From a virus (taxonomy: Duplodnaviria > Heunggongvirae > Uroviricota > Caudoviricetes), in the IMG/VR virus record IMGVR_UViG_3300014204_000107, positions 235,352 to 299,351 of that record: 64,000 bases of DNA. One strand, given 5' to 3'. The notes beneath the pieces were generated by a model. The model saw nothing but the letters and a program-made list of their open reading frames with translations, was not told the DNA's origin and searched no databases. Shown in pieces: positions 757 through 52,587 of the stretch (the first letter of the stretch is position 1; each line of letters begins with the position of its first letter). A program made the position numbers and the translations under genes.

Positions 757-1080
757 ATGACAAAGCAAGAATTAAAACAATTGATTAAAGAAGAGCTTAA
801 AATTGCTTTAAAAGAAAGCAAAATTGATTATCAAATATATCACGGATCATATTCTTCTGCAATACAAACTGCAATAGAATATGCTAAAAAACGAGGGTAT
901 GATGTAGACGAAGATGATATATGGAATAGAATATCTGTTGGGCCTGCGAAACCGCAGGATGGTAAAACAAATAGATTTAGTATTTCATTGATAAAAGATG
1001 GCAAAGAACAAAAGAAAACATTAAATATACAAATATATGGTATGGGTAATAAATATGAATTAAATTGCTATATTAGCTAA
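757..1080 (+). CDS. Small protein with ELKQLIKEE leader (putative virion-internal protein)
   Basis: AGGAG Shine-Dalgarno; N-terminus MTKQELKQLIKEELKIALKE matches the leader found on several other ORFs. Confidence 0.75.
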   Translation: MTKQELKQLIKEELKIALKESKIDYQIYHGSYSSAIQTAIEYAKKRGYDVDEDDIWNRISVGPAKPQDGKTNRFSISLIKDGKEQKKTLNIQIYGMGNKYELNCYIS

Positions 1081-1898
1081 TGTCAAGAAGACTTAAAAAT
1101 AAAACACCTGCAGCTGCCACACAAGAAGAAATTTTTACTGGCATTCAAACACTTGAAACAGAGGATAGGGCAACCCATATTCGAGAAGATGCAACAATAA
1201 AGCAAACACCTGATTTCACTGTTACTTTGCTTGATATAGATGAGGCAATTGAATATTATTTTAAAAATATAATCATACCAAAAGTAGAAGATAATGGCAG
1301 TATAATAGATGTACCAATAGTATATGGCACACCAGAAAAGTGGAAAGCAATGCAAAAAGATGGTTATTACCATGACCAGCAAGGTAAAGCATTAATACCA
1401 TTAATAATGTATCGTAGAAGCTCTATGCGGAAAAATAGAACTTTAACAAGAAGCCAAGACGCAAATAATCCAAGGTTACATTATTATTATGGTGCTATAT
1501 ATTCACCAAAAGATAGGTATGATAAATTTTCATTACTCAATGGCAGCCACCCACCTAAACAGCATAAAAAGGTAGTTGTGCCAGACTACGTGACCCTAGC
1601 ATATGACTGTATAATTTGGACTGACTATGTAGAACATATGAACAAAATACAAGAGGCAATTGAATATGCTGAAAGTTCATATTGGGGAGATAAAGAACGG
1701 TACCAATTTTTATGCACTATTACTGACTTTGCACAAGATTCATCGAGCAATGCAGGTGAAGATAGAACTATAAAATCTACGTTTACGATTAATTTACTTG
1801 GATATTTAGTACCAGACGCATTACAAAAAGAACTTACAAAACATTCCGGCTTAGATTTTTCTCTTTCAAAAATCATTTTTTCTGAAAATTTAAAATAG
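1080..1898 (+). CDS. T4 gp15-like tail terminator / sheath-stabiliser (neck) protein
   Basis: VPIVYGTPEKW...PLIMYRR pattern resembles gp15-like proteins; lies just upstream of the sheath gene. Confidence 0.6.
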   Translation: MSRRLKNKTPAAATQEEIFTGIQTLETEDRATHIREDATIKQTPDFTVTLLDIDEAIEYYFKNIIIPKVEDNGSIIDVPIVYGTPEKWKAMQKDGYYHDQQGKALIPLIMYRRSSMRKNRTLTRSQDANNPRLHYYYGAIYSPKDRYDKFSLLNGSHPPKQHKKVVVPDYVTLAYDCIIWTDYVEHMNKIQEAIEYAESSYWGDKERYQFLCTITDFAQDSSSNAGEDRTIKSTFTINLLGYLVPDALQKELTKHSGLDFSLSKIIFSENLK

Positions 1899-1952
1899 CT
1901 ATAAGCTGAGGGTTTCGAAATAACAAAATAACAATTTAACAGGAGGTTACAA

Positions 1953-2234
1953 ATGGAAAACAATGAAATTAAGTTCTCAACAGAAGAACTCGAAAAAATC
2001 AAACAATTACAAACACGGTCAGCAGAACTAACATACCAGTTAGGCCAAGCGGTCGCCCAATTAGAATTTGTAAATAAACAAATAGACCAGCTAATTATTA
2101 CTAAAGAACAAACAATTACTAATTTATTTGACTTACAAAAAGAAAGTGAAGAGTTCACAAAAACGCTTCAATCTAAATATGGAGATGGTCAATTAAATTT
2201 GGAAACCGGCACATTTAGAAAGTTCTCGACATAA
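1953..2234 (+). CDS. Small coiled-coil hypothetical protein
   Basis: AGGAGG SD; heptad-rich helix ending KYGDGQLNLETGTF. Confidence 0.7.
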   Translation: MENNEIKFSTEELEKIKQLQTRSAELTYQLGQAVAQLEFVNKQIDQLIITKEQTITNLFDLQKESEEFTKTLQSKYGDGQLNLETGTFRKFST

Positions 2235-2261
2235 ATATTTAGCTAAAATTCATTCTTGATT

Positions 2262-2294
2262 AAGTTTGCACTATATATTGGTAGCAAACTTTTT
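2262..2294 (+). terminator. Intrinsic terminator with a putative promoter box (CTATATAT) inside the hairpin
   Basis: AAGTTTGC(2262-69)/GCAAACTT(2284-91) stem followed by a T-tract; CTATATAT at 2271-78. Confidence 0.6.
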
Positions 2295-2352
2295 CTATGA
2301 TGGCATGCATCATAAATAATAAATGTTAATATTAACAAACAAGGAGAAATAA

Positions 2353-6228: not shown

Positions 6229-6462
6229 ATGAATAAGTTAGAACTGAAGCAATTAATTAAAGAGGAAATAAAACTTTCTTTAAAAGAAAATATGTCCATG
6301 TCTGCTTACGGAAAGCATAAAACACAGTCAATTAGTATTACGAGATGGGAAGAAATATTGAGAGATTTGGCATATAATTTTAGAATTAAATATGGTGCAT
6401 CTGAAATGGAATCATATTCTTTTAAAGAATGGATGAATCTTTTTTTAAGTGAAATTAAATAA
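6229..6462 (+). CDS. Small protein with ELKQLIKEE leader
   Basis: AAGGAG SD; MNKLELKQLIKEEIKLSLKE. Confidence 0.7.
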   Translation: MNKLELKQLIKEEIKLSLKENMSMSAYGKHKTQSISITRWEEILRDLAYNFRIKYGASEMESYSFKEWMNLFLSEIK

Positions 6463-6555: not shown

Positions 6556-6864
6556 ATGGGATATGTATATTTAATAGAGGCGTCAGATAATAATCAAACC
6601 ATATATAAAATTGGATATACCAAGCATAAATTTAAAAGTAGAATACAAGGATTGAATACTGGCACAGCTGCCGATTTAAAAGAATTATATAAATTTGAAA
6701 CAAAATATGGTAGATTGCTTGAAACATCTATGCATAATTTTTTAAAACATAAGCAAGTTAAGCGAGAATGGTTTGATTTAGACATTAATGATGTAATTAA
6801 TTTTTTGCCGATGTGTAAGAAGATTGAAAATAATTTAGATATAATATCGAGGAATATAGCATGA
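6556..6864 (+). CDS. GIY-YIG superfamily protein (T5orf172/MUG113-like)
   Basis: GYVYLI...YKIGYT...RIQGLNTG...LE..MH...REWF motif series. Confidence 0.85.
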   Translation: MGYVYLIEASDNNQTIYKIGYTKHKFKSRIQGLNTGTAADLKELYKFETKYGRLLETSMHNFLKHKQVKREWFDLDINDVINFLPMCKKIENNLDIISRNIA

Positions 6865-7631
6865 ATAAAATGGAATTAGTTCAATTAATTAGAGAATGCA
6901 TTAATGAAGAAATATCTAAATTTAAAGGTAATACAATTCGCTTAACTGAAGGTGGCAACGTATTTAAAAATGCTGATAATACTCCTGCGACAACAAGAAT
7001 TAATAAAGAAGATGTACTGCCGACTATTAAATGGTTGGAAAGTATAACAGGGTTGCCATTAGTAAATAATACACTTGGTAGTACTGGCATAGCTGCTCAA
7101 TCTGGAGATTTAGACCTGGCAGTTGACGTTAATAAAATATCTAAACAAGAATTAGAAACTATTTTAAAACAATGGACTGCTAAAAATGGGCTTGATCATA
7201 GACTATTTATAAAAAAGACTGGTGATTCTGTGCATTTTAAAACACCAATTGTTGGAAAAACAGGAGAATATGTGCAGACAGATTTCATGTTTAGTGATAA
7301 TTTAGAATTTACGAAATGGCGTATGCGAGGCACGAGCCCAACATCAAAATACAAAGCACAACATAGAAATATATTAATATCGAGCATAGCAACATCATTA
7401 GGACTTAAATGGTCATATTTTAATGGTTTGGTAAGTAGAGAATCTGGTAAAGTAATAACAGATAACCCAGATGAAATAGCTGAAATATTATTAGGCCCCG
7501 GGCATACTGATAAAGATTTAATATCTGTTGAATCCGTATTAGATGCAATTAAAGACTTGCCGAATAGGGATAAATTAATTGCAGACGCTAAAGAAACATT
7601 AAGTAGATTATATAATGTAAATATTGAATAG
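6861..7631 (+). CDS. Pol-beta-superfamily nucleotidyltransferase-like protein with leader
   Basis: LGSTG...SGDLDLAVD (GS...DxD) and a third acidic residue in VQTDFM; leader MNKMELVQLIRECINEE...RLTE/GG. Confidence 0.7.
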   Translation: MNKMELVQLIRECINEEISKFKGNTIRLTEGGNVFKNADNTPATTRINKEDVLPTIKWLESITGLPLVNNTLGSTGIAAQSGDLDLAVDVNKISKQELETILKQWTAKNGLDHRLFIKKTGDSVHFKTPIVGKTGEYVQTDFMFSDNLEFTKWRMRGTSPTSKYKAQHRNILISSIATSLGLKWSYFNGLVSRESGKVITDNPDEIAEILLGPGHTDKDLISVESVLDAIKDLPNRDKLIADAKETLSRLYNVNIE

Positions 7632-7635: not shown

Positions 7636-7986
7636 ATGAAATTAAGTGAATTAAGGCAGTTAATTAGAGAATGCACTAATGAGGTATTATCGGAAAAAAT
7701 TAGTGATAGAATATATAGTAAAGAGGGCCTTATTGCTAGCAGAACTATACCACAAGAAATGAAAGATAAAATATTGCCATATGTTACATCACAATCATAT
7801 TATATGAATAAAAAGATGTTTGATCTTGCAATACCTAAAATTAAAGGAAAAAGTTTCAATGGCGTGGACATTGGTGCTGATAAAGATGGTTTTTTTGTAT
7901 TTACACATCGCGCAAGATCTAAATCTTATTCTACTATTGCAGACATTCCTAATAAAGATATAAAATTTATAGAAAGCACAGGTTGA
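7636..7986 (+). CDS. Hypothetical protein with leader
   Basis: ATG at 7636 gives MKLSELRQLIRECTNEVLSE; preferred over the TTG at 7624. Confidence 0.7.
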   Translation: MKLSELRQLIRECTNEVLSEKISDRIYSKEGLIASRTIPQEMKDKILPYVTSQSYYMNKKMFDLAIPKIKGKSFNGVDIGADKDGFFVFTHRARSKSYSTIADIPNKDIKFIESTG

Positions 7987-7987: not shown

Positions 7988-8962
7988 ATGAAATTAAGCG
8001 AACTCAAACAGTTAATTAGAGAATCTATCAAAGAATACCACGAAGACGCAATATCTGATAGTGAAGAATATCTATATACTGGTGCTTCACAAATAACAAA
8101 TGCTGGTGATGGATTATTTACTGCAATCGATATATACAAAGGAGAAATAATTAGTGAATTTAAAGGTGAAGTTCTTACTTATCAGCAATCATTAGAAAGA
8201 AAAAAAGAAAGTGGTGATGATTATTTTATGGATTTGCCGAATGGCAAGGTATTAGATTGTAAAAGAACAAATGGATTTGCTAAATATGCTAATGATGCAG
8301 AAGGTTTTGGTGCAGGACCACATAAAAATAATGCAAGAATTGAATTAGTATATGCTAAAGTTTGCTTGGTTGCTACAAAAAATATAAAAGCAAACAGTGA
8401 AATATTTGTTGGATATGGCAAGAATTATTGGAATAATTTTAAAACAAAACATGCTATGACGGAAGAAGTAAACAATGAATTACCCAAATTAGTTTTATTA
8501 GTTGGCATCCCAGGCAGTGGTAAATCTACTTGGATTAATAGTAATAAACCAAAATGGAAAAATACAATAGTAATATCGCCAGATAATATAAGAAGAACAA
8601 TGCTTGGTGATGTTAGTTCGCAGGCAGATAATAAAGCAGTTTTTGATATGGCAAAGAATAATACAATAGACGCATTAAAGAAAGGTACTAATGTAGTATT
8701 AGATGCAACGAATGTAAATACTCAATTACGAAAAAATTGGGTTAATAGTGCGCAAAGTCAAGTTAATTGCAAATTACAAGCTAAATTATTTTGGGTAGAT
8801 AAAGAAAAGGCATATCAAAGAATATCTAGGGATATTGTAAATAAAGTTGATAGGGCAAACGTACCAAAAGAAAATATAGATGTAATGTATATTCAGTTTC
8901 TGCAATCTGTAAAACATTTAAAAAGTGAAGGATATGAAATTATTAGAGATTATTTAGAATAA
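7988..8962 (+). CDS. Leader + SET-domain methyltransferase + PNK/AAA_33-like P-loop kinase fusion
   Basis: SET motifs AGDGLFT, AKYANDA...NNA, ATKNIKANSEIFVGYG..YW; kinase motifs LLVGIPGSGKSTW, SPDNIRR, VVLDATN. Confidence 0.85.
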   Translation: MKLSELKQLIRESIKEYHEDAISDSEEYLYTGASQITNAGDGLFTAIDIYKGEIISEFKGEVLTYQQSLERKKESGDDYFMDLPNGKVLDCKRTNGFAKYANDAEGFGAGPHKNNARIELVYAKVCLVATKNIKANSEIFVGYGKNYWNNFKTKHAMTEEVNNELPKLVLLVGIPGSGKSTWINSNKPKWKNTIVISPDNIRRTMLGDVSSQADNKAVFDMAKNNTIDALKKGTNVVLDATNVNTQLRKNWVNSAQSQVNCKLQAKLFWVDKEKAYQRISRDIVNKVDRANVPKENIDVMYIQFLQSVKHLKSEGYEIIRDYLE

Positions 8963-11608: not shown

Positions 11609-11929
11609 ATGAACAAGGCTGAACTCAAGCAAATTATACAGGAAGAAATATATAATGCATTAGTTGATACATTTGAGCACAAATTATTAACTGAGGGAGT
11701 TGCTACGAGCATTGCAGACATGATATTTAAAATTATTGAAAAAAATAGAATACAGAGTCTTATGAATAGGGCGCAAAATATAGATCCTGAAATAGCTCGC
11801 CAAGTAAATAACTTTAAAATTGCATCAAAATCTCTTAAAGATTATTTAGAACAGGATTATGGTCGGGGTTCTAGCCCAAAAGATAAAGCAGAATTAATTA
11901 GCGTGTTACGAAACATTAATAAAAAATAA
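11609..11929 (+). CDS. Hypothetical protein with leader
   Basis: GGAG SD, ATATTTAT box at 11578; MNKAELKQIIQEEI...KLLTE/G. Confidence 0.75.
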   Translation: MNKAELKQIIQEEIYNALVDTFEHKLLTEGVATSIADMIFKIIEKNRIQSLMNRAQNIDPEIARQVNNFKIASKSLKDYLEQDYGRGSSPKDKAELISVLRNINKK

Positions 11930-36767: not shown

Positions 36768-37148
36768 ATGGCAATAAAATATTCACGAGTAAAGCAAATA
36801 ATCAAAGAAGAAGTTCAAAAAGTAGTTGAAGAAAAGACTGAGGAAGTCAATAACTTTAATGCGCTAAGAGACTTATATATTTTTCTAAAACAGTCATTAC
36901 GAACAGAAGGCATGCATAAATTATTATACAATCGCCATCAAAATATATTAGAGATTAAAAATCCTGATATTAACAGCGTTAATATGAAAGAAAATTATAC
37001 TCTTAAAATTGAAGTTAAAGGCGATAAGTTTAGTGTTACTGCTGGTTCCTTATTTGAAGGAATAGATAATAAAACCGAAACATTTGGTTTGCGCGACTTT
37101 AATAAAGTTTTAAGATTTTGCCAATACCAACTTAATGCGGATTTATAA
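36768..37148 (+). CDS. Hypothetical protein with leader variant
   Basis: GGAG SD; MAIKYSRVKQIIKEEVQKVVEE. Confidence 0.75.
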   Translation: MAIKYSRVKQIIKEEVQKVVEEKTEEVNNFNALRDLYIFLKQSLRTEGMHKLLYNRHQNILEIKNPDINSVNMKENYTLKIEVKGDKFSVTAGSLFEGIDNKTETFGLRDFNKVLRFCQYQLNADL

Positions 37149-37150: not shown

Positions 37151-38455
37151 ATGGCTGATAAATTGAAAGGTGGTAAGGCAGATAAAATGACGCTAAGAGA
37201 TATTGCCGCATATTGGGCCGATAAACAAGATAGTCCATTCGATGTAATTTATGATATATGCCAAAAACAATATACTATTGGTTTAAAAATAGAAGCAGAA
37301 CACACAAAAGACCCGGCAGAATGTGCAGAAATAGTTAAAGACCATATTAAAGAAGATTTGAAATACTATACTAATGCAAAACCAAAAGACTGGGCAAAGA
37401 AAGAATTAAAGAAAGAAAAAGTAGATGAGGGGGAAGGTGAAGAACAGCCAAATCCAATATCACCGCCATGGAAATTAAAAAATAACCCGCCAATACAGCC
37501 CCAACCAGTGGCTCCAACATGGACTAATATAAAGGAGATAAAAATGAAAGCAAGCAGACTACGTGAATTAATAAAAGAAGCTATTAACGAGGTTGAGAGT
37601 GCAGGAAGTATATTTCTTGGGGTTGAAGATCCGGCAAAGATGTATGAAACTAAAGAATGCTTGTCAGAAAAGAAAGAATCAACTAAATTTAATGTAAGGG
37701 AAAATATGCAAAAGTTAACAGAAGCAATCTTAAAAGTAGGTGAAGTCGTATTTACTCCAAGGTGGAGCGGAGATAGATATTATAAATTCTATGAGAAATC
37801 ATTACCCGCAACATTAACCCAAGAAGAAAGAGAAAATTACAAAACAACTCCATTATTAGCTGGAACAGAAGATAATATAGCAAGCCAACTACAAGATTTA
37901 GGTATAGATACCCAATCTATATTTGCTGCATTTGCAAGAGCGCGTGGATTAAAAGAACGACCCAGAGATCCAGCAAATAGTTTAGCTCGCCTTCCATATG
38001 ATGAAACATTGGTATCAAATGTTGACAGATATAAAGAGCCAGAGCCTGATTTATTAAGCTTAAAATATACAGACGTTGTAGCCCCGGATGAAGAGCCAGT
38101 AGTGGCAGAACCAGCAATAGCACCAACACCTGAACCAATTATAAAGCCAGAAAAAGCAGTAAAACCAGCAATGGTACAAGAGCCTGTTGATTTCAGCGGT
38201 AGAAAAATAACTCCAGCGTTAGCTGAATTATTATTTTATAATGGACAATTGCGCGATGCAACAAAACAAGCATCCGGTGTAGCAACTGAGCAAGAATTAG
38301 TTGGATATGATGTTACTGAATTAGTAAACGCATTGCAACAAATTGGTACCCGTGGTGCCAAACAAGCTATATATGCAATTAAGAATACCAATGAAGGAAT
38401 AATTCGCAGGTTATTGGGGGAGCTTAAAGAATCTAAAAAGAATAATAAAAAATAG
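37151..38455 (+). CDS. DUF5661-like N-terminal domain fused to a leader-bearing protein (internal start at 37544)
   Basis: GLKIEAEHTKD...EIVKDH.KED.KYY; internal AGGAG(37533)-ATG(37544) gives MKASRLRELIKEAINE. Confidence 0.7.
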   Translation: MADKLKGGKADKMTLRDIAAYWADKQDSPFDVIYDICQKQYTIGLKIEAEHTKDPAECAEIVKDHIKEDLKYYTNAKPKDWAKKELKKEKVDEGEGEEQPNPISPPWKLKNNPPIQPQPVAPTWTNIKEIKMKASRLRELIKEAINEVESAGSIFLGVEDPAKMYETKECLSEKKESTKFNVRENMQKLTEAILKVGEVVFTPRWSGDRYYKFYEKSLPATLTQEERENYKTTPLLAGTEDNIASQLQDLGIDTQSIFAAFARARGLKERPRDPANSLARLPYDETLVSNVDRYKEPEPDLLSLKYTDVVAPDEEPVVAEPAIAPTPEPIIKPEKAVKPAMVQEPVDFSGRKITPALAELLFYNGQLRDATKQASGVATEQELVGYDVTELVNALQQIGTRGAKQAIYAIKNTNEGIIRRLLGELKESKKNNKK

Positions 38456-38950: not shown

Positions 38951-39499
38951 ATGAAATTTAACGAAAAAACGGAGAATTTATTTAAATTGATAGATGAAAA
39001 AATCCTGTCCGATAGAGATTACTTGAAATTAAATACATTTTTGGATAAACATTTATTTGAAAATTACGCTCTATTAGGAGAATTGCTTAACCCAGATAAT
39101 GCATATCCGTATATTGAATCAAATTTAAAGGGTATGTGGGTATTTACGGATGAATTTGGGTTTGATTATTTTGTAAGAATATATTACACACCATCAAATA
39201 CTGCAATGTTTGAACTTAAAATGGGGTGGGTAGATCTTGATAAGCAAGAAAAATATTTAAGACAATCTGCAAGGGGCATAGATGAACGAAGAAGTGATAC
39301 TATTGCAAAGATATATAGAGATGAAATATTGCCATTTTTTAAAAAAATGAAAGAGTTATCAAATACCTTAGTAATAAAGCCGAATGATATAAAACGATAT
39401 CAATTTTCAATTCGATTGGTGCAGAAATTTACACCAAATGAGTTTGAGATAATAGAAGATAAGCCAACAAAAATAACAATTAAAATAAAAAATATATGA
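38951..39499 (+). CDS. Hypothetical protein, probable distant paralog of 52051..52587
   Basis: Shared pattern LxE...NxY, F.(D/N)(E/D).G, E...W, D....(D/N)T, (K/R)P.D..R; stop overlaps the queD start (ATGA). Confidence 0.65.
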   Translation: MKFNEKTENLFKLIDEKILSDRDYLKLNTFLDKHLFENYALLGELLNPDNAYPYIESNLKGMWVFTDEFGFDYFVRIYYTPSNTAMFELKMGWVDLDKQEKYLRQSARGIDERRSDTIAKIYRDEILPFFKKMKELSNTLVIKPNDIKRYQFSIRLVQKFTPNEFEIIEDKPTKITIKIKNI

Positions 39500-40110
39500 T
39501 AATACGCAAATTATTTAAGTTTGAAGCTTCGCACATGGTGCGTAATTGTACAACAAAACGATGCTCCACCAGCTTGCATGGTCATTCGTTTAGAGTGGAG
39601 ATATTTTTAGAATCGGACCAGTTGGATTTTGGCGGGATGGTTGCGGATTTTGGCATAGTTAAGATGTTTTTAAATGACTTTATAGATAGTTTTGACCATT
39701 GTTATATGCTATGGGACAAAGAATCAGATGAAGTCAAAGAATCAATTAAAAAGCTAAGTGCAAGGTGGATTGAATTACCAATGTCACCAAGCGCAGAATC
39801 ATTGTCAATTATGTTTTATTGGGTAATTGACCAAATTATTAACAATATTAGGTTTGCTAATGGTGAAGAAGGTGTAACATTATATGCTGTTAGAGTACAC
39901 GAAACTGATACTGGTTATGCAGAAGCTAGATTTGAAGATTTAGCATTGACTATTGGTTACGAGTTAGAAGATATTAAGTTTAGTGATCAAGTGCGTATTG
40001 AATGGAAAGATAAAAAATGGTGGTATGATTTATTAGAAGGTGCTATATTTGAAGCGCCTAAGCCAATACACCAAATAAATCCAAGTTTAAATGAAACGCA
40101 TATTTTATGA
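39496..40110 (+). CDS. queD: 6-carboxy-5,6,7,8-tetrahydropterin synthase (QueD2-type)
   Basis: FEASH, CX4HGH (CSTSLHGH), GMVADFG, FDH, PSAE, VRVHET. Confidence 0.92.
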   Translation: MIIRKLFKFEASHMVRNCTTKRCSTSLHGHSFRVEIFLESDQLDFGGMVADFGIVKMFLNDFIDSFDHCYMLWDKESDEVKESIKKLSARWIELPMSPSAESLSIMFYWVIDQIINNIRFANGEEGVTLYAVRVHETDTGYAEARFEDLALTIGYELEDIKFSDQVRIEWKDKKWWYDLLEGAIFEAPKPIHQINPSLNETHIL

Positions 40111-40964
40111 CGCAAATAAAATTAACAAAGAATGGTATATTTCCAATTAAAAGAAATTATGCTGGAGAACTGATTGATGATAGTAGCAACGACATTGCTA
40201 TGCAGGGTGAAGGGAAATTAGCTGGCGTGCCTTCTTTGTTTATAAGAACGAGCGGTTGTGATCTCCGCTGTTGTTGGCATGATTGGGATACTAAAACATT
40301 TGAAATATGTGATACGGCATATTCTTCATTTGATATAAAAAAAAGTTCCTATTATACTGTTGAAGAATGCGTTAATGAAGTACGTTACAATATGGGTAAT
40401 ATAAACCATTTAGTTGTAACTGGCGGGGAGCCAATGATACATTCATTTCCATTAATTGAAATATTTGAAGAACTTAAATCTTATATACCAAATTTACATA
40501 TCACATTAGAAACTAATGGAACATTGTTTGATGAAAACATTGTAGAATATGTAGACTTATTTTCAATTTCTCCTAAGTTGCAGTCGACTGAGCCAGACGT
40601 AAAAGTGTTAAAGGAATACGGTATCATTTTAGAACCTCGATGGAGCATATCGCATAAAAACCGACGCATTAACTATACTATCTTACAGCAATTAATAAGC
40701 AGTTGTTATATTGATACATTTTGTAAAGCAAAGAAGTATAACAAAGATTTTCAATTAAAATTTGTTGTCTTTAAAGAAGCGGATATTATTGAAATTAAAG
40801 ATATATTATCCGGCTTAATTGGCGTTAATAATAGCGATGTATATTTAATGCCATTGGGCAGCACTAAAGAAATGTTACAAAAGAATATACAGTTTTGCTT
40901 AGATAAGTGTATAGAAAATAATTGGAGATATTCTCCGCGCATACAAGTTGAATTATTAAAATAA
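40107..40964 (+). CDS. queE: 7-carboxy-7-deazaguanine synthase (radical SAM)
   Basis: MQGEG..AGVPSLFIR.SGC, expanded CX3C...CDT cluster, VVTGGEP, ETNGT, SISPKL, LKFVV, YLMP, SPR. Confidence 0.92.
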   Translation: MTQIKLTKNGIFPIKRNYAGELIDDSSNDIAMQGEGKLAGVPSLFIRTSGCDLRCCWHDWDTKTFEICDTAYSSFDIKKSSYYTVEECVNEVRYNMGNINHLVVTGGEPMIHSFPLIEIFEELKSYIPNLHITLETNGTLFDENIVEYVDLFSISPKLQSTEPDVKVLKEYGIILEPRWSISHKNRRINYTILQQLISSCYIDTFCKAKKYNKDFQLKFVVFKEADIIEIKDILSGLIGVNNSDVYLMPLGSTKEMLQKNIQFCLDKCIENNWRYSPRIQVELLK

Positions 40965-41091
40965 ATAAAATTGCAAATTATGATGGGTGGAAGTACAATA
41001 AAGAATCATAATGGTCTGCATTCATAAAGGGGCTTATAGATTAGAATAGCACTTCAAGAATATAGGATCTTGCACAGACCGGCAATTTTAT
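40965..41091. ncRNA. Candidate structured RNA or small inverted-repeat element
   Basis: Nested stems ATAAAATTGC/GCAATTTTAT, ATTATGAT/ATCATAAT, GGTCTG/CAGACC and CAAGA/TCTTG fill the intergenic gap. Confidence 0.4.
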
Positions 41092-41110
41092 ATTAATCAA
41101 ATTAAATAAT

Positions 41111-41353
41111 ATGGAATCTAACTTATTGGCACCACATAAATCGATAATGAGTCGATACAGCTTAAAAGCTATGGCCGAATCAAAAGGTTTAACTGAAGAA
41201 CAATTTAAAAATTACCTTGAAAAGGAAATACAACTGAAGCAAAAAATGATTGATGATAGATTAGCAAAAGGATATACATTAGAACAGGCAACTAACGAAA
41301 CATTAAGATGTTTATATATTCCCGGATTTAGCGGACCAACATTTAAAGATTAA
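41111..41353 (+). CDS. Hypothetical protein
   Basis: ORF track; packed on the + strand. Confidence 0.6.
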   Translation: MESNLLAPHKSIMSRYSLKAMAESKGLTEEQFKNYLEKEIQLKQKMIDDRLAKGYTLEQATNETLRCLYIPGFSGPTFKD

Positions 41354-41369
41354 CATAAATTTAAACAAA

Positions 41370-41555
41370 ATGGAAACAATTACAATTTCAAAAGAAAAAT
41401 TACAAAAATTGCTTAGTAATTTTTACGCAGTATGCGGATTATGTGATGAAATGGACATATATGAAGCAGAAGAGTTAGATGATGCAATGCAAGAAATGAA
41501 AGAATGGGCAGAGGAAGAGTTTGGACGCACTATTGATAATGAACAATATATTTAA
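41370..41555 (+). CDS. Small acidic hypothetical protein
   Basis: ORF track; A-rich translation initiation region. Confidence 0.6.
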   Translation: METITISKEKLQKLLSNFYAVCGLCDEMDIYEAEELDDAMQEMKEWAEEEFGRTIDNEQYI

Positions 41556-41557
41556 TT

Positions 41558-42049
41558 ATGCGCGGATTTGTAATAGTACAAGATAAGCATAGAGCATTCC
41601 CGGATGCAGAAATTATAATGCCCACGCAGCAAACACATAGTTCTGCTGGATATGATTTCTTTAGTAATGAAGAAGCAACAATATATCCAATACACTATCA
41701 ATACAAATCAGATGCAATATATGAACAAAAGCATGTATTCTGGTTTGACATTGCAGCAATCATGCCGCCTGACGAAGTATTAAAAGTATATTTAAGATCT
41801 TCTTTAGGATTCAAGCATAGTTTAATAATACCAAATTCTGTTGGTGTAATAGACGCGGATTACGCGGGAAATGAAACAAATGGCGGCAACATTGGATGTT
41901 GTTTAATAAATCTTGGCAATACCCCATATACGGTACATAAAGGTGATAGAATATGTCAAGGTATATTTGAAAAGCATTGGCCAGCTTTATTTGGCTATAA
42001 TGTAAATAATGAAATCCGCAATGGTGGAATAGGATCAACAAATAAATAA
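41558..42049 (+). CDS. dut: Trimeric dUTPase
   Basis: SAGYD, RSSLG, GVIDADY, GDRICQG, RNGGIGST motifs. Confidence 0.95.
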   Translation: MRGFVIVQDKHRAFPDAEIIMPTQQTHSSAGYDFFSNEEATIYPIHYQYKSDAIYEQKHVFWFDIAAIMPPDEVLKVYLRSSLGFKHSLIIPNSVGVIDADYAGNETNGGNIGCCLINLGNTPYTVHKGDRICQGIFEKHWPALFGYNVNNEIRNGGIGSTNK

Positions 42050-42051
42050 TT

Positions 42052-42180
42052 ATGAATATAGCATGGATAGCATTAATTTTTGGGCTAATGGTTGGATTTT
42101 GCTTAGGCAATATGTTCCAACTATTAATAAAAGATTATATAATTAAAAATAAAAACAATGGAACAAATACAACTAATTAA
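42052..42180 (+). CDS. 42-aa single-TM peptide (not in ORF track)
   Basis: MNIAWIALIFGLMVGFCLGNMFQLL...; fills the dut-folE gap. Confidence 0.5.
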   Translation: MNIAWIALIFGLMVGFCLGNMFQLLIKDYIIKNKNNGTNTTN

Positions 42181-42814
42181 AGATTCGCAGTCTAACAGGC
42201 CAATTACAGATAAGCAAAGAGAAAAGCTTATTAAGAAAGCAACTAAATCCTATGGCAAATTCTTAACAGATTTGGGATTCGATTGGGAGCAAGACCCACA
42301 AATGAGAGAAACACCCCACCGCGTGGCAAAGATGTACATTAATGAACTATTTGCTGGCACATATTCAGAAGCGCCAGTTATAAAAGATTTTGAAAATTCA
42401 ACTGGCTACGGTGGCATGGTTTTCAGTGGGGGTATTTCGGTAAACTCGATCTGTGCGCATCACCACGTTGGATTTTTTGGAAATGCTTTTATATCATATA
42501 TTCCTGGTAAAACTGGCAATGTTATTGGATTGTCAAAGCTTAATCGAATAGTAGATTTCTTTGCACGCAGACCCCAAATACAAGAATCGTTGACCCAACA
42601 AATACATAACTATATAAAAGAAGTTATTGCTGATAATGAGGGCATAGCTGTATATATCGAAGCCAGACATATGTGTACTCATGCAAGGGGAGTCAAGCAA
42701 AATTCAATCATGGCAACATCTGTATTAAGTGGGTCATTCCTTGAACTTGATAGGGTTAAAGACGAATTCTATCAACAAGTAAATAATATAAAGCAACAAA
42801 TGGGAAAATTTTAA
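42158..42814 (+). CDS. folE: GTP cyclohydrolase I
   Basis: ETPHRVAKMY, SICAHH, GLSKLNRIV..FARRPQIQE.LT, ARHMC...RGV. Confidence 0.95.
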   Translation: MEQIQLIKDSQSNRPITDKQREKLIKKATKSYGKFLTDLGFDWEQDPQMRETPHRVAKMYINELFAGTYSEAPVIKDFENSTGYGGMVFSGGISVNSICAHHHVGFFGNAFISYIPGKTGNVIGLSKLNRIVDFFARRPQIQESLTQQIHNYIKEVIADNEGIAVYIEARHMCTHARGVKQNSIMATSVLSGSFLELDRVKDEFYQQVNNIKQQMGKF

Positions 42815-44972: not shown

Positions 44973-45184
44973 ACCCACAAGCGTATGAACAAGGTAAAAG
45001 AAGGTTAAAGGAATTAACCCGTTTACTTGATGCAATCTTAAAGAAAAACTCGATTGTAAATGAAAATGGTGAAAGAGTTATGAATTTCACAGATGACGAA
45101 AAACAGCAACAGTATTTTGCAATGTTAGAAGAATTTAATATTCTTAGCGAGCAGATTGGAAATAAACAAATATTATTAGATTAA
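44969..45184 (+). CDS. Hypothetical protein
   Basis: AAGGA SD, ATG 44969 (MNPQAYEQG...); overlaps the polB start. Confidence 0.6.
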   Translation: MNPQAYEQGKRRLKELTRLLDAILKKNSIVNENGERVMNFTDDEKQQQYFAMLEEFNILSEQIGNKQILLD

Positions 45185-48100
45185 TGTACATAAATAGCTA
45201 CTACGACAAGAAACAAAAGATAGTGCACATATGGGATGATATGCGTGGTCATATTCAAATTCCATATAAAAGATATGCATTTAAGAAGACTAACAAAAAG
45301 GAAGGCAATTTTATAACATTAGATGGCCACCCTGCAAAGAAAGTATATGATTGGACTGATGAAGACATTGAAAGTGGCTTAATATATGAATCAGATGTGC
45401 ACCCGGAAACGCGCACACTAATTGATATGTATTATGAATCTGATGAGCAATCTAAAAACCATTGCGACTTATTTCTTGATATAGAAGTTTCAACTAAAAA
45501 TGGCTTTCCTATTATTAAGGAAGCCAATAATGAAATTACAGCCATCGGCAATTATGCACGTGGTTCACTTGAAGAAAAATATTATTGCTTTGCTCTTGAT
45601 AAGGAAGATAAAACAAAAGATCTTAAGTTAGAAAATACTAAGATAATAAGATGCCATACAGAAGAAGAGCTATTAAATAAATGGCTTGATTGGTATGAAT
45701 ACGAACAAGTTACTTGCTTGACAGGATGGAATTGTTTGGATGTAAATAGTTCAATATGGTTGCAAAACCAAATAATTAAATTATCAGATTGTAAAATCAA
45801 TGATAAATTAGATAAATATGGTATAATTAACAATGTTATAAATACTGGATTTAAAAAAAGTTACAATATTAATTTATATGGTGGCACTAATATAACTACA
45901 TCTGGCAATCATATATTTCCTTCATATATTGTTCCAAAAAATAAATATATCGATGATGCATTAATAACACAATATATATCTGAAAAATCAACAGTTGAAC
46001 TATCAAAACAATTAATAAATAATAATATTTATTGTAGAGTTGAAAAGCATAATAATATTAATGTCGAATTAACATATAAAGATATTATTTTAAATAATTT
46101 AAAATTATATCTGTCATATTCTTGGTTTGATGTTATGGTTGGCGGAGAAAAAATTAAAAATTATTTATTACAACATCATTATGATGAAACAATAAATATC
46201 ATAAAAAACAAAAGATATCTTTCCAAATTTGATTATGGTAATAGCAGCTGCTGGCGATATAAAAACTTTAAACACTTATTGCCATTTGAATTATTATATG
46301 AATATATACAAACATCACATGAATTTAAAATCTACATTAAACATTCTAAGACAATAATTAGGGATGATAAGATTACATTTGATGCATGTAAATTATTAGG
46401 ATTATTGTTTACTGATGGATGTATTGATAAAAATCTAGTAGATTCAAATATTTGCAACGGTGATATTGGTATTGTTACAGACTATACTAATATCATTAAT
46501 GAATTATATGCTAGAAAATCATTATCAATTTTTAAAAAATCAAAACGAGATAATTGTTACTATGGTACATTTAGTTCTAACGTATTTAGAATATTATTAC
46601 CCTGCATATATGATCAAAAATTTAAAAAACACATAAATACTAATCTGATATCTCAATTTTCAAATTCACAATTTAATTCTTTTTTTAGTGGGATGATAGA
46701 TGGCGATGGATCTGTTACTGGTGGTGTTTCATTATGCAATTATGAAAATAATTTGATTAACATTCAAGAATTATTAATGTGGAATGGCGTATTTTCAACG
46801 CTAAATCATAATAAAACCGTTCTATGGATTTCACCTAATCAATATAATAAATCATTTATTGAATCGTTAAATATATCCCACCATACCAAAAAAATAACTC
46901 AAGCAAATCTTAAATTTAAATTTAGAAATCATGCCAAGTCTAAATTATTACGATATATAGATAGAGAAGATCACGTTTTAGTTAGAATTGATTCGATAAT
47001 CGATGATAAAGATATTGAAATGATGGATTTAACTACATCTACGCATTATTTTATTGCAAATAGTATTAAAACTCATAATTGTGATGATTTTGACATCCCA
47101 TATTTATATCGCCGTATAACTAAAGTATTAGGAAAGCAAGCTGCAAATAGATTGAGCCCTATTGGTATAGTTGAAATAGATGATTTTATGGGCGTTAAGA
47201 TTGCGGGTGTTTCATCACTTGACTATATGATGCTTTATAAGTTATATACTTACAACCAGGAGCCATCGTATTCATTAGAATATATTTCGACTAAAGAACT
47301 TGGTGAAGGCAAGAAAAAATATGAAGGTTCATTACAACAATTATATGAAACTGATATATGTTCTTATGTAGAATATAATATAATTGACGTTATGCGAGTA
47401 TTGCAATTAGATGAAAAATTGCAATTTATGGATAGGGCAAAGGACATTAGTCACCAAGCACATACTCCATATGAAAGTATATCAATGGCATCAAGGGTTA
47501 TTGATGGATTTTGTTTAACTGAATCAAAGAAAATAAATATAGTATTACCCAATAGAAAAAAACATAAAGAATTAGGTCTCTTGCAGGACCACGATGAAGG
47601 AGATGATAAAATATTTGTAAAAGACCCAATACCAGCTGAATTACCAAAGCGTGGTATGCTTAAAATATATAAAACAAAATCATCGTGGTTAGAAATAAAC
47701 TTTGTTGATTGGAAAGACAATTATTTTATTCTTGAAGAACCGCTGGAAGAGCATATAGATGAGGAATTTCCAATTATATTAGCATTAATTGGTGCATATG
47801 TTAAAGAACCAATACCTGGATTATATAAGTGGATATTTGATATTGACGTAACATCTGAGTACCCAAACACAATGATCACGCTTAATATTTCACCAGAAAC
47901 GAAAATGGGTAGGATTATCAATTGGGATGCGGAAGAATATATACAGGGGCATATTAAACAGTATGACGTTCGCGTAAAAGGTAGGAAGCAAATTCTTACA
48001 AAAGAAGAGTTAGCAGAAATGCTTGAAGATAATAAATATGCAGTAGCTGCTAATGGCGTATTTTATAGAACGGATAAAGTTGGACTTATTCCAAAATTGC

Positions 48101-49248
48101 TTATTAAATTATTTGCAAATAGGAAAGAATATCGTGAATTAGCTAAGAAATATGGCAAAGCTGGCGATAAAGATAAACATAGATATTTTGATAAAAAGCA
48201 ACTTATCCAAAAGATTTTACTTAATTCGTTTTATGGAGTGCTTGGCTTAACATCATTTAGATTCTATGACATCGATAATGCTGAAGGCGTAACAAGTTCG
48301 GGACAGTGCATGATAAAATTTACTGCTAAAGTTGCAAATAAATACATTAATAAAATTGTAAATACTGCAGACCATGAGGAAGATATTGACTATGTGATCT
48401 ATGCAGATACTGATAGTTGCTATATACAAGCGTTACCATTAGTATTAAAGCGGTATTCGGATATTAATTTAACAAACGACGATGAAATTGCTGAAAAAGT
48501 AATTGACGTCGCAGTGGAAGTAGAAAATTATGTCAATAAAGCATATGATTATTATGCTAAAAAGTTTTATAATGTAGACATACATACGCTTGAAGTCAAG
48601 CAGGAATATGTTTCTAAATCTATGTTGTTATTAGCAAAGAAGAGATATGCACAAAAACTTATTCGTGAAAAAGGTTTAGTAATTAATAAACTTGATGTAA
48701 AGGGCATGGATGTAGTTCGTTCAGATTTCCCGATGTCATTTAGGCAATTCTTTACTGAAATACTTATTGATATACTAGATTTAAATGGCTATGCGGACGT
48801 AAGTTCTAAAATTTTAGAATTTAAATACAGCTTGCATAAACGGGAATTAGACCAGATTATGAATCCAAAGGCAGTTAAGAATGTTTCTAAATACGATAAG
48901 AATCGCCATAAATTTGGAAATACAAAGGGAGCTCCGGTTCACGTTAAAGCCGCGTTAATGTACAATGATTTCTTACAGTTATATGGCATTAAAGACGTAA
49001 AACCAATTTCAAATGGTGAAAAGATTAAATGGTGCTATCTCAAAGACAATAACTATAATATTGAAACATTAGCGTTACGGGATTCCAATGACCCACAACA
49101 AATTATAGATTTTATAAAAGCATTTATTAACTATGAATATATGTTCGATAAAGCGTTTGGAAAGAAGATAAATGCAATATATAATGCATTAAAGTGGGGA
49201 AGTTTGCCAAAATCTAATGTTTCAACTAAATTTTTCGATTTTTCATAA
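45184..49248 (+). CDS. polB: Family-B DNA polymerase with intein
   Basis: ExoI DIE, ExoII GWN|CDDFD, ExoIII YNIID, GAYV, motif A DVTSEYP, motif B KILLNSFYG, motif C YADTDS, KKRY. Confidence 0.95.
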   Translation: MYINSYYDKKQKIVHIWDDMRGHIQIPYKRYAFKKTNKKEGNFITLDGHPAKKVYDWTDEDIESGLIYESDVHPETRTLIDMYYESDEQSKNHCDLFLDIEVSTKNGFPIIKEANNEITAIGNYARGSLEEKYYCFALDKEDKTKDLKLENTKIIRCHTEEELLNKWLDWYEYEQVTCLTGWNCLDVNSSIWLQNQIIKLSDCKINDKLDKYGIINNVINTGFKKSYNINLYGGTNITTSGNHIFPSYIVPKNKYIDDALITQYISEKSTVELSKQLINNNIYCRVEKHNNINVELTYKDIILNNLKLYLSYSWFDVMVGGEKIKNYLLQHHYDETINIIKNKRYLSKFDYGNSSCWRYKNFKHLLPFELLYEYIQTSHEFKIYIKHSKTIIRDDKITFDACKLLGLLFTDGCIDKNLVDSNICNGDIGIVTDYTNIINELYARKSLSIFKKSKRDNCYYGTFSSNVFRILLPCIYDQKFKKHINTNLISQFSNSQFNSFFSGMIDGDGSVTGGVSLCNYENNLINIQELLMWNGVFSTLNHNKTVLWISPNQYNKSFIESLNISHHTKKITQANLKFKFRNHAKSKLLRYIDREDHVLVRIDSIIDDKDIEMMDLTTSTHYFIANSIKTHNCDDFDIPYLYRRITKVLGKQAANRLSPIGIVEIDDFMGVKIAGVSSLDYMMLYKLYTYNQEPSYSLEYISTKELGEGKKKYEGSLQQLYETDICSYVEYNIIDVMRVLQLDEKLQFMDRAKDISHQAHTPYESISMASRVIDGFCLTESKKINIVLPNRKKHKELGLLQDHDEGDDKIFVKDPIPAELPKRGMLKIYKTKSSWLEINFVDWKDNYFILEEPLEEHIDEEFPIILALIGAYVKEPIPGLYKWIFDIDVTSEYPNTMITLNISPETKMGRIINWDAEEYIQGHIKQYDVRVKGRKQILTKEELAEMLEDNKYAVAANGVFYRTDKVGLIPKLLIKLFANRKEYRELAKKYGKAGDKDKHRYFDKKQLIQKILLNSFYGVLGLTSFRFYDIDNAEGVTSSGQCMIKFTAKVANKYINKIVNTADHEEDIDYVIYADTDSCYIQALPLVLKRYSDINLTNDDEIAEKVIDVAVEVENYVNKAYDYYAKKFYNVDIHTLEVKQEYVSKSMLLLAKKRYAQKLIREKGLVINKLDVKGMDVVRSDFPMSFRQFFTEILIDILDLNGYADVSSKILEFKYSLHKRELDQIMNPKAVKNVSKYDKNRHKFGNTKGAPVHVKAALMYNDFLQLYGIKDVKPISNGEKIKWCYLKDNNYNIETLALRDSNDPQQIIDFIKAFINYEYMFDKAFGKKINAIYNALKWGSLPKSNVSTKFFDFS
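45733..47079 (+). mobile_element. 449-aa LAGLIDADG intein in the polB exonuclease domain
   Basis: Starts CLDVNS; block B TSGNH; LLGLLFTDG and FFSGMIDGDG; ends THN/C; removal restores GWNCDDFD. Confidence 0.93.
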
Positions 49249-49254
49249 AAAAGT

Positions 49255-49284: not shown

Positions 49285-49322
49285 TAGTAAAACAGTTACA
49301 AATTAACTAAAAATTATAAGTT

Positions 49323-49754: not shown

Positions 49755-49764
49755 AACATAGCAA

Positions 49765-50067
49765 ATGAAAAGATTAGTAAAAGACGGTGACTTTATTTCA
49801 ATGAAAGACAGCACACAAAGTGATGTTAAATTAATATTAGATAAAATAAAAGATGGTTGGGTATATACAAATAAAAAATTATGGAAGCAATGGAAGCAAT
49901 GGAAGCGCGGCACACTTGTTATAGATGAGCCAGTTTTAACTGAACAAACAAAAGAATTGCCTAAAAAAGAAAAAGTTAAAAAGGTTAAACATGCAGATAC
50001 TGCAGTTGAAGAAAAGAAGAAAAGCAGATTTGAACGCAACAAAGAAAAGAAAAACAAAAGAAAATAA
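49765..50067 (+). CDS. Basic, Lys-rich hypothetical protein
   Basis: ORF track; WKQWKQWK repeat. Confidence 0.6.
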   Translation: MKRLVKDGDFISMKDSTQSDVKLILDKIKDGWVYTNKKLWKQWKQWKRGTLVIDEPVLTEQTKELPKKEKVKKVKHADTAVEEKKKSRFERNKEKKNKRK

Positions 50068-50414
50068 TGAAAACAAATATAATAGTTAATTTAACAGTTG
50101 AAGGTTTGCATTGCTGGAAAGAAGCAGAAATAAAGCTTCCGGAAGTAGCTTATTTATCTAATTTGCACAGACATAATTTTTATATTACGTGCAAGCAAGA
50201 AGTTCAACACCATAACAGACAAAAAGAATTTATAATGCTTAAGCATGAAATATTTGATCATTTGTTATTAACGTATTTTGATGAACAATTTAATTGCATG
50301 AATTTTGACACAATGTCTTGTGAAATGATTGCAGTTGAATTATTTGAGAAGTTTGGTTTAAGCTACTGCAGCGTTTTAGAAGACGGGGAATGTGGTGGAG
50401 AAATAGTAAAATAA
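50067..50414 (+). CDS. dpdL: QueD-paralog T-fold protein, DpdL-like (predicted CDG decarboxylase)
   Basis: EGLHCW, LSNLHRHNF (LxxxHRHxF), MSCE.IA, V.EDGE.G; second QueD-like gene in a deazaguanine cluster. Confidence 0.7.
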   Translation: MKTNIIVNLTVEGLHCWKEAEIKLPEVAYLSNLHRHNFYITCKQEVQHHNRQKEFIMLKHEIFDHLLLTYFDEQFNCMNFDTMSCEMIAVELFEKFGLSYCSVLEDGECGGEIVK

Positions 50415-50415
50415 T

Positions 50416-50586
50416 ATGGAAGAAGATATAATTCGTATTGAATATGATGATGAGATTTGGGATGTTATTGATGCCATAAGTGCAGCATTAGACAAATATG
50501 ATTTAAGAATAGAACAATGCAAAGAGCAGGACGAAGAGCCTAACGGTGTTACAAAGTATCAAATAATACAATTATTAAGAATATAA
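50416..50586 (+). CDS. 56-aa acidic protein (not in ORF track)
   Basis: MEEDIIRIEYDDEIWDVID...; exactly fills the gap between its neighbours. Confidence 0.55.
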   Translation: MEEDIIRIEYDDEIWDVIDAISAALDKYDLRIEQCKEQDEEPNGVTKYQIIQLLRI

Positions 50587-50587
50587 T

Positions 50588-51700
50588 ATGAAAAATATAT
50601 TTATATTGCCCATAGAAAGCATTGATACGCGCTACACAGCACAATGGAAAACATATATTCCAAAGTTACTTAATGAACATATTGCAGCAAATAACTTAGA
50701 TTACCAAGTTATTGATATAGATGGCATTATTGAAGAAGGAACTAACGAAACTACTCCCGGTGCATTTTTAAACTTTGCGAAAACAAATATTTATAAAAGT
50801 TCGCAGGCCATTACAGTTGCTAAATTATTTGAACAAGATTTAGTTAAAGATGGTGACCAATTCATATTCACAGACGCATGGAACCCAATTATAATACAGC
50901 TTAAGTATATGGCTGAATTATTTAGAAAAAGAATTGTTATTCATGGACTATGGCATGCTGGAAGTTATGACCCAATGGATTGGCTTGGCAGGCATTTTAA
51001 CCATGCATGGTCGTTTCCATTTGAGCAATCTTTATTTTGGGCAATAGATAAGAATTATTTTGCATCTGACTTTCATATTCGTATGTTTATATATGAGTTA
51101 TTTAATGTAAAGGGTTCTGGTGCAAAAGTAGACCAAATGATAAGTAGGTTGCATAATAAAATAGTTCGATGCGGCTGGCCGATGGACTATATGCCGAAAA
51201 TACTTGAAAAATATAAAACGGAAGAAAAAAGAAATTTAATATTGTTCCCACATAGAATAGCACCAGAAAAACAATTAGATATATTCAAAGACTTGGCGGA
51301 AGCATTGCCAGAATATGAATGGATTGTTTGTCAAGAACAAAATCTAACTAAAGACGAGTACCATAAACTATTGGGCGAATCAAAAATAGTATTCTCGGCA
51401 AACTTACAAGAAACATTAGGTATATCAGTTTATGAAGGTGCAATAGTTGGTGCATTACCATTAATGCCAGATAGATTAAGCTATATGGAAATATGGCCAC
51501 CTGAATTTAAATATCCAAGCGAATGGACTGAAAGCTTTGATAAATACATTGAACATAAAGATAAAGTAATTGCACTTATAAAACAATATATTGAAGAATA
51601 TGATACCTATTCATCCTTATTGATTAATTTAGTCCCGAAAATAACATCAAAATATTTTACTGCTGATGCACTTATTAATGAATTATTTAAATCTAATTAG
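50588..51700 (+). CDS. GT-B fold glycosyltransferase (GT4-like)
   Basis: FPHR...EK, SKIVFS..LQETLGIS.YEG...GA.P..P...SY.E nucleotide-sugar-binding segment; WHAGSYD. Confidence 0.8.
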   Translation: MKNIFILPIESIDTRYTAQWKTYIPKLLNEHIAANNLDYQVIDIDGIIEEGTNETTPGAFLNFAKTNIYKSSQAITVAKLFEQDLVKDGDQFIFTDAWNPIIIQLKYMAELFRKRIVIHGLWHAGSYDPMDWLGRHFNHAWSFPFEQSLFWAIDKNYFASDFHIRMFIYELFNVKGSGAKVDQMISRLHNKIVRCGWPMDYMPKILEKYKTEEKRNLILFPHRIAPEKQLDIFKDLAEALPEYEWIVCQEQNLTKDEYHKLLGESKIVFSANLQETLGISVYEGAIVGALPLMPDRLSYMEIWPPEFKYPSEWTESFDKYIEHKDKVIALIKQYIEEYDTYSSLLINLVPKITSKYFTADALINELFKSN

Positions 51701-51701
51701 T

Positions 51702-52049
51702 ATGGAAAATATTGATGTTGCTGAAGTATTAATAAAAAATGGCTTTTATTTAGGCCGATTAATGGCAGGTTCTAAATCATTGTATCGTAAAGCATATCCA
51801 GATAATTTTGCAGTATTTAATGCAAATATAATAACGGATAATGGTAAAATATGGTATGGCGACATAGATGTAACTTTAGATGAACCAAAGTTATTACGAA
51901 TAGCAAAAGAAACAGACACAGATTTATACATCTTGCGTGAAATGGATTGCAGATTTGAACATGAAAATGATTCAGTAGAAATAATGAAAAGTAAAGCAGT
52001 AGCAATAATAACTAAAAGTGGCGCTGAAATTATAATCAAAACGAAATAA
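51702..52049 (+). CDS. Hypothetical protein
   Basis: ATG 51702; GR...GSKS.Y...FNAN...IWYGD.D. Confidence 0.65.
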   Translation: MENIDVAEVLIKNGFYLGRLMAGSKSLYRKAYPDNFAVFNANIITDNGKIWYGDIDVTLDEPKLLRIAKETDTDLYILREMDCRFEHENDSVEIMKSKAVAIITKSGAEIIIKTK

Positions 52050-52050
52050 A

Positions 52051-52587
52051 ATGGATCAATTAACTACATTAATTAAAAAAATTGTACGGGAAGTTTTAAT
52101 AGAAGAGGAAGATAAAAAACTATTAAAAGAATTTAATTTTGATATAGAAAATAGATACGAAAATACAGCAGATAGTACCGATACAGTAAAGATATTTATA
52201 AATGATTCTGGTATGTACAATTATACTATAATGGAACCAATTAAATCAAATGCTAATAGTAAGTTATCATATGAAATAGTAGAAATTATATTTATGTGGT
52301 CAAAAGAAAAAAATAAAAATTTATCCGTTGAAAAACCAAATACCGTTGATCAAAAAGTATTTAATACGCATTTATATAATTTTTTAACATATTTTATTGA
52401 TTCAGCAGATATAGTATTACTGCGACCAATTGATAGATTTCGTGTTAGATTATTTAGAATGGCATTAAATAGTACATTAAATCATGATTTATATGATATG
52501 AAAGATAATGAAGATGTTCTTCGTATATTAATAGCAAAAAAAGATACATTTTTAACTGAAATACTAAAATTAATTAAAACTAAATGA
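52051..52587 (+). CDS. Hypothetical protein with leader variant; probable paralog of 38951..39499
   Basis: MDQLTTLIKKIVREVLIEEEDKKLLKE/F; stop overlaps the dpdA start (ATGA). Confidence 0.65.
   Translation: MDQLTTLIKKIVREVLIEEEDKKLLKEFNFDIENRYENTADSTDTVKIFINDSGMYNYTIMEPIKSNANSKLSYEIVEIIFMWSKEKNKNLSVEKPNTVDQKVFNTHLYNFLTYFIDSADIVLLRPIDRFRVRLFRMALNSTLNHDLYDMKDNEDVLRILIAKKDTFLTEILKLIKTK

Follow-up and report, generated by a model that had tools for sequence, protein, structure and literature searches.

A 20-residue N-terminal leader on 27 genes of a distant T4-like phage is a candidate capsid-targeting propeptide

Why should a set of otherwise dissimilar phage proteins open with the same short sequence? 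The question arises from the IMG/VR virus record IMGVR_UViG_3300014204_000107, and specifically from its last 64 kb (64,000 nucleotides, positions 235,352 to 299,351; G000:C1:235352-299351), hereafter the window. The whole record is 299,351 bp long with direct terminal repeats; the window has a GC content of 32%, and nearly every gene in it lies on the + strand. A preliminary description of the window had pointed to an amphipathic N-terminal leader on about nine open reading frames (ORFs) and proposed that it loads proteins into the phage head. We found that the leader belongs to a family with 27 copies in this genome, and we read it as a capsid-targeting propeptide of the T4 type that would be released by proteolysis, a reading to which we assign a probability of roughly 0.65. 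In T4, a capsid-targeting sequence (CTS), itself conserved, is established on a diverse set of internal proteins (PMC3012670; PMC9026906): it comprises 10-19 N-terminal residues, brings the protein into the scaffolding core and is subsequently removed (PMC9026906; PMC3012670).

The leader has the consensus M-[NK]-K-x-E-L-K-Q-L-I-K-E-E-[IV]-x-x-x-L-x-E over 20 residues. A scan of the whole genome with a profile hidden Markov model (HMM) of the leader had been proposed at the outset, and we ran it against the six-frame translation, together with a second, broader profile. The first profile recovered 27 copies; under the broader HMM these all score E <= 6e-4, and the next match stood at E = 1.5, leaving a clean gap to noise (E > 1). 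All 27 lie on the + strand and begin at a methionine; 26 of them open an ORF, and the other, at window position 37544, stands in frame inside an ORF of 434 residues. Eight copies fall inside the window (757, 6229, 6861, 7636, 7988, 11609, 36768 and the internal 37544). The N-termini that the preliminary description quoted for nine ORFs were confirmed by reading, and its three quoted codon strings are present in the sequence, but the HMMs recovered only these eight. The ninth, at 52051..52587 on the + strand (178 residues, no Shine-Dalgarno site), was found by neither HMM, and we rejected it as a secure member; its loosely leader-like N-terminus matches five tagged ORFs at 8 or more of 21 residues, a threshold that also admits many chance pairs. 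With 27 members genome-wide and hundreds elsewhere, the size of the family had been understated. Among the copies upstream of the window, the tagged ORFs at genome positions 209112 (L013:9112-9219) and 210366 (L013:10366-10476) encode only 35 and 36 residues, with a body of about 15 residues, and a degenerate leader remnant lies at genome position 209901.

The sequences that follow the leader are unrelated, as first claimed: an all-versus-all BLASTP comparison of the 27 leader-stripped bodies gave no match below E = 0.1. Recognisable enzyme folds occur in the bodies of only two of the 27, those at 6861 and 7988, so the original wording of "diverse enzymes" was too strong. The remaining bodies are mostly small and of unknown function (the proteins span 35-435 residues); Pfam and PHROGs gave no family for most of the 27, and a protein atlas comparison yielded no usable lead for the bodies of 435 and 374 residues. 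One could still suppose that the 27 proteins are a single paralogous family whose C-terminal parts have diverged past recognition, as the small size and adjacency of many members might suggest. We regard this as very improbable, as it does not account for the different folds among the bodies (a Pol-beta-like nucleotidyltransferase, a SET domain with a P-loop kinase, and DUF5661) or for body homologues that exist without the leader.

The leader codons indicate the level at which the sequence is constrained. Where two leaders share a residue, their codons agree 62% of the time, compared with 57% expected from genome codon usage, and the constraint is therefore selection on the peptide and not a recent DNA repeat, in agreement with what the preliminary description had drawn from synonymous variation. 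These figures bear on two explanations that place the function in the nucleic acid. In the first, the leader DNA would be mainly a recombination handle that moves small gene cassettes, with the peptide as a by-product. T4 offers a precedent in the tags of ipII and ipIII, which are identical in 30/30 bases (T4 65689-65718 and 66386-66415), whereas the codons here are nearly as varied as usage permits (0.62 versus 0.57) and the amino-acid sequence is conserved over hundreds of distant phages. Such a role is compatible with capsid targeting, but given the codon diversity it cannot be the main constraint, and as the principal explanation it is improbable. In the second, an A-rich 5' coding region would boost initiation in a host group that is sparing with Shine-Dalgarno sites. 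The first codons are A-rich and the tagged genes also have strong ribosome-binding sites, yet synonymous sites vary freely and conservation extends over 20 amino acids with a defined end, leaving this explanation as implausible as that of a single protein family.

The defined end is apparent from the conservation profile of the leader. Conservation was calculated from the best 150 of 751 cluster representatives retrieved by a profile search of 1.84 billion such representatives (at E <= 0.001), and because these are top HMM matches, the conservation at positions 1-20 partly reflects how the sequences were chosen. Each of positions 1-14 holds 3-4.3 bits; I10 and E12 occur in 100% of the sequences, L18 in 81% and E20 in 83%. 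The information drops from 3-4 bits to below 1 bit at residue 21, where S, N, D and G predominate. The same break after residue 20 is visible in the 27 unselected copies of this genome. The tag holds two hydrophobic-x-E motifs, at residues 10-12 and 18-20; of 149 distinct leaders among the best matches, 100% have I-x-E in the first place and 82% have [LIVM]-x-E in the second. The earlier statement that the leader ends in a protease-type L-x-E holds for 20 of the 27 copies, which have hydrophobic-x-E within residues 17-30, and does not hold for about seven. The leader does not have the form of a Sec/Tat or lipoprotein signal peptide, in which a basic N-region leads into a hydrophobic core at least about 10 residues long: it has no hydrophobic stretch and alternates Lys and Glu with single hydrophobic residues.

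The genome encodes a candidate for the protease that would remove such a leader. To judge from sequence, the phage is a distant T4-like myovirus: its tail sheath shares 41% and its major capsid protein 53% identity with their counterparts in Microcystis phage Mel-JY01, and similar values hold for an uncultured 484-kb phage and for Flavobacterium phage vB_FspM_immuto (hereafter immuto; host Flavobacterium sp. LMO8). The head module lies immediately upstream of the window and contains terminase, portal, two core-position genes, prohead protease, a scaffold-like protein (acidic and coiled-coil) and a gp23-like capsid protein. The protease is a gp21-family Peptidase S77 (PF03420 at 52.5 and 35.9 bits within a single frame of ~570 residues that contains an inserted element; phrog_207), and its gene adjoins those for portal, scaffold and capsid protein. 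T4 gp21 cleaves after Glu in L/I-x-E (PMC9026906). In a four-way alignment, the column of the T4 gp23 cut (L-T-E, cut before A) corresponds to an invariant E63 in the capsid proteins of this phage, immuto and Mel-JY01, in the context [LI]-[VI]-[TS]-E, which suggests that protease specificity is probably conserved. As for docking, the N-terminus of the scaffold family reads L-L-K-E-A-I ... V-R-E and is reminiscent of the leader, a likeness that may be a hint only; in the sequences compared here, the T4 CTS resembles the N-terminus of the T4 scaffold gp22.

Several observations on the head genes stand apart from this argument. Both the portal (1266 residues; L013:13026-16826) and the protease (L001:160-1872) exceed their usual size about two- to threefold, with inserted HNH or intein-like segments within an intact frame. 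The T4 core protein gp67 (gene 67; L085:5782-6024) contains D-L-I-K-E-E-K-I ... L-I-E followed by G and shares the L-I-K-E-E core of the leader, which may be chance. At genome positions 217723-218628, a gene of 301 residues occupies the gp67/gp68 position in the portal-protease interval, and its product has internal leader-like helices ending in I-x-E or A-E; the immuto gene in that position, of 73 residues, has the leader-like start M-K-K-S-Q-I-V-K.

The boundary between leader and body can be followed through homologues in the case of the ORF at 6861..7631 (+ strand, 256 residues, HMM E 2e-8), whose 30-residue extension (6861-6950) ends in L-T-E before G-G-N-V-F. Its body resembles Pol lambda/beta in Foldseek (E about 1e-5, template modelling (TM) score 0.45-0.48), and the AlphaFold2 model of the product has a predicted local distance difference test score (pLDDT) of 93, with a compact body above 90; the leader is modelled as a separate helix at residues 3-22, followed by a disordered linker at 24-29 that contains the L-T-E. 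We detected 1812 homologues of this body. Nearly all of the best 120 of these carry an N-terminal extension, 4 to 224 residues long, whose hydrophobic-x-E end abuts G-G-N-[VI]-F. T4-CTS-like sequences (M-R-A-K-E-F-I-x-E) are found among the extensions, and a few homologues, including those of immuto (M-G-G-N-V-F) and Agrobacterium phage Atu_ph07, have no extension and begin at M-G-G. A junction that is constant while the address part varies by lineage would fit a cut site followed by the mature N-terminus. The DUF5661-like domain presents a second case: it is leader-tagged in immuto and untagged in the window, where a leader stands at a later point of the same ORF. In evolution the tag behaves as a module, in that homologues of tagged bodies occur without the leader or with other extensions at the same junction. 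As a separate observation, some of the homologues of the 6861 body from uncultured phages (P0152-P0270) have long extra N-terminal domains that open with a T4-CTS-like M-R-A-x-E-F-[IV]-x-E, and in nearly all the homologues listed the junction reads hydrophobic-x-E before G-G-N-V-F-K.

Tagged genes are also unevenly distributed along the genome. The head-neck-tail module at 209-247.3 kb makes up 12.8% of the genome and holds 17 of the 27 (binomial p = 1.5e-9). A GGAG-type ribosome-binding site precedes 70% of tagged genes versus 13% of other genes (Fisher p = 7e-9), and among the untagged genes that have one are those encoding the capsid protein and scaffold, the protease, and the sheath and tube. 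The T4 late promoter TATAAATA is absent within 120 bases upstream of every tagged gene, so promoter class could not be used as evidence.

The leader extends well beyond this genome. When IMG/VR was searched with a degenerate DNA pattern that encodes nine core residues, 70 stretches matched, with a Met exactly four residues upstream in 67 of 76 matches; the loci are often multi-tagged, with up to seven tagged genes in 13.5 kb. In the best 150 of the 751 cluster representatives, the match begins at residue 1 in 120. The leader-bearing contigs are fragments of ~160 kb phages, and complete relatives of that size have about eight tagged genes each. An S77 protease is encoded by 13 of the 23 contigs with the leader; the near-complete ones, three in number, all have it. 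Among cultured phages, the leader stands on at least four genes of immuto, and tagged genes of this phage start at record positions 81481, 102250, 102836, 113144 and 123311; the uncultured 484-kb phage has weaker copies, and the leader is absent from the genomes of Mel-JY01, pelagiphage HTVC008M and cyanophage P-SSM2, which were searched. A tblastn search of the 24-residue leader against cultured phages gave no match, which is attributable to the shortness and low complexity of the query. Immuto has two further families of shared N-termini (types B and C) that are unrelated to the leader, each with [LI]-x-E at its end and a small residue after it; HMM searches found neither type in the present genome. 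The immuto genes with these further leader families lie at record positions 1803, 103762, 117587 and 118588, and at 25470 and 111631 (L111-L118). Mel-JY01 has three adjacent paralogues that begin with M-I-K-L-K-S-L-L-x-E (L104, record 60276-62718; L102, record 26740).

If the leader is a capsid-targeting propeptide, it would act as an exposed amphipathic N-terminal helix that docks its protein to the scaffolding core during prohead assembly. The gp21-family (S77) protease would then cut after Glu, at I-K-E (10-12) and/or at L-x-E (18-20), and the mature protein, freed inside the head, could exit with the DNA at infection. The idea of a portable head-loading address tag, put forward in the preliminary description, gains from the unrelated bodies, the hydrophobic-x-E end, the gp21-family protease and the conserved capsid cut site, while docking, cleavage, packaging and ejection are steps that we infer.

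A number of points weigh against this assignment. Ten tagged genes lie outside the structural module, and about seven of the 27 leaders have no clean hydrophobic-x-E at residues 17-30, leaving I-x-E at 10-12. The conservation at positions 1-20 owes something to the choice of top HMM matches. The comparison of leader and scaffold N-termini was not significant (hhalign P = 0.29), hence the low weight given to their likeness above. Leader and T4 CTS (M-K-T-Y-Q-E-F-I-A-E) are not significantly similar, with only a hydrophobic-I/L-K/A-E core in common, and the mature bodies have mixed isoelectric points (4.1-10.6), unlike the basic internal proteins of T4. The hydrophobic-x-E before G-G-N-V-F may belong to the nucleotidyltransferase fold rather than to a cut site. 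Finally, we found no virion proteomics, N-terminal sequencing or expression data in the literature for any leader-carrying phage.

Some of these points would suit a different function, in which the leader is a shared docking or oligomerisation helix for a non-capsid partner such as a phage hub protein, a phage chaperonin or a membrane site, and the hydrophobic-x-E motifs are simply part of a Glu/Lys-rich amphipathic heptad. The hydrophobic positions 6, 9/10, 13/14 and 17/18 have coiled-coil-like spacing, some tagged genes lie far from structural genes, and the window appears to encode a GroES/GroEL pair (59408-61594, judged from N-terminal sequence only). A docking helix leaves unexplained, however, why conservation is lost sharply and exactly after E20, why the three immuto leader types share an [LI]-x-E end, why the extensions of the nucleotidyltransferase family meet the body at a single junction, and why tagged genes cluster with head and tail genes. 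We therefore consider it unlikely, though it is the most credible of the alternatives to capsid targeting.

Capsid targeting by a propeptide is already established for T4; the candidate tag described here is unrelated in sequence, longer, has two candidate sites and stands on 27 genes. The T4 tag on IPI, IPII, IPIII and the Alt propeptide, removed by gp21, is likewise a short N-terminal sequence on unrelated proteins with a hydrophobic-x-E end, and the two systems are further alike in their gp21-family protease, in having a T4-like capsid protein whose cut site is conserved, and in the gain and loss of tagged genes among relatives. They differ in that the leader has 20 residues and two hydrophobic-x-E motifs, as opposed to the 10-residue tag of IPII and IPIII, and in the number of tagged genes (27 here and about 8 in the 160-kb relatives, versus 4-5 in T4). 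Leader codons have diverged here, in contrast to the identical DNA of the T4 ipII and ipIII tags; several leader types coexist in one relative, immuto, and the system described here is known from sequence alone. A full-text search with the motif as a word found no published description of the leader motif.

Encapsulin cargo-loading peptides are similarly short and portable and direct diverse cargo into an HK97-fold shell. Unlike the leader, they are usually C-terminal, bind the shell protein directly and stay uncleaved, and their loading involves no scaffold, protease or DNA ejection. In phiKZ-like giant phages (phiKZ, 201phi2-1, SPN3US), many head-internal proteins are cut after Glu by a T4-related protease, and the propeptides can hold several sites (PMC9026906). 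These propeptides are long and have no single conserved portable tag, and they are cut at S/A/G-x-E, with a small P3 residue, by a diverged gp21 homologue, all of which sets them apart from the leader.

The other tagged ORFs of the window, all on the + strand, show the variety of the bodies. The first, at 757..1080 (107 residues, HMM E 1.2e-8), has its leader at residues 1-20 (757-816), with L-K-E followed by Ser and AGGAG at -10, and its body has no family match in Pfam or PHROGs. The ORF at 6229..6462 (77 residues, E 2.4e-8; leader 6229-6288) has L-K-E followed by Asn and an AGGAG upstream. Directly behind the nucleotidyltransferase gene, the ORF at 7636..7986 encodes 116 residues from the ATG at 7636 (E 2.4e-11); its leader ends in L-S-E before Lys, and the C-terminal half of the product matches phrog_3666 (function unknown). 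It is followed at 7988..8962 by an ORF of 324 residues (E 2.3e-8) in which the leader precedes a SET domain (residues 40-144; PF00856 at 3e-11) and an AAA_33/zeta-toxin-like P-loop kinase (161-315; PF13671 at 1e-18). In the product of 11609..11929 (106 residues, E 2.2e-9), the cut-site scan placed the end of the extension at L-T-E, with Gly at residue 29 next. The ORF at 36768..37148 (126 residues, E 5.6e-4) has a divergent leader that begins at residue 3.

The ORF at 37151..38455 (434 residues) combines an untagged DUF5661-like N-terminal part with the internal leader at 37544-37609 (HMM E 4.4e-6). It could be a two-part fusion, or an internal start could yield a tagged protein of 303 residues. 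The internal start seems likely because AAGGAGA (37532-37538) lies at -12 from 37544.

Further genes of the genome were recognised incidentally. Judged by their N-terminal sequences only, window positions 45184-49248 encode a family-B-like DNA polymerase of 1354 residues, long enough for an insert, and positions 39496-42814 hold QueD/QueE/FolE-like genes of a 7-deazaguanine pathway. By the same measure, an ORF of 81 residues between the protease and scaffold genes (genome 222844-223089) is bS21-like; phage-encoded bS21 is reported for large Bacteroidota phages (PMC9723584).

A broader reading would treat the tag as a readable cargo code across a clade of uncultured T4-like phages, probably infecting Bacteroidota, that marks every protein which enters the head and is delivered along with the DNA. 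Under it, the 27 proteins, about a tenth of the coding genes and including the Pol-beta-type nucleotidyltransferase and the SET-methyltransferase/kinase fusion, would all be cargo, and several orthogonal leader classes per phage could sort cargo by amount or timing. We offer this extension only tentatively, as a possibility less probable than its opposite; if it were true, repertoires of injected effectors and counter-defence proteins could be listed from sequence alone. The narrower capsid-targeting reading would already have consequences. Should the tag function as its T4 counterpart does, it would provide a simple sequence rule for head-packaged, and probably injected, proteins in a large and barely studied group of aquatic T4-like phages, and host defences encounter such proteins before any other phage factors. 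A cultured phage that bears the leader exists in Flavobacterium phage immuto, and the tag could be put to use as a handle for packaging when such phages are engineered. What has been a curiosity of three to five proteins in T4 would then become a system used at scale, with 27 genes in this genome and at least 751 protein clusters from uncultured T4-like phages in public data.

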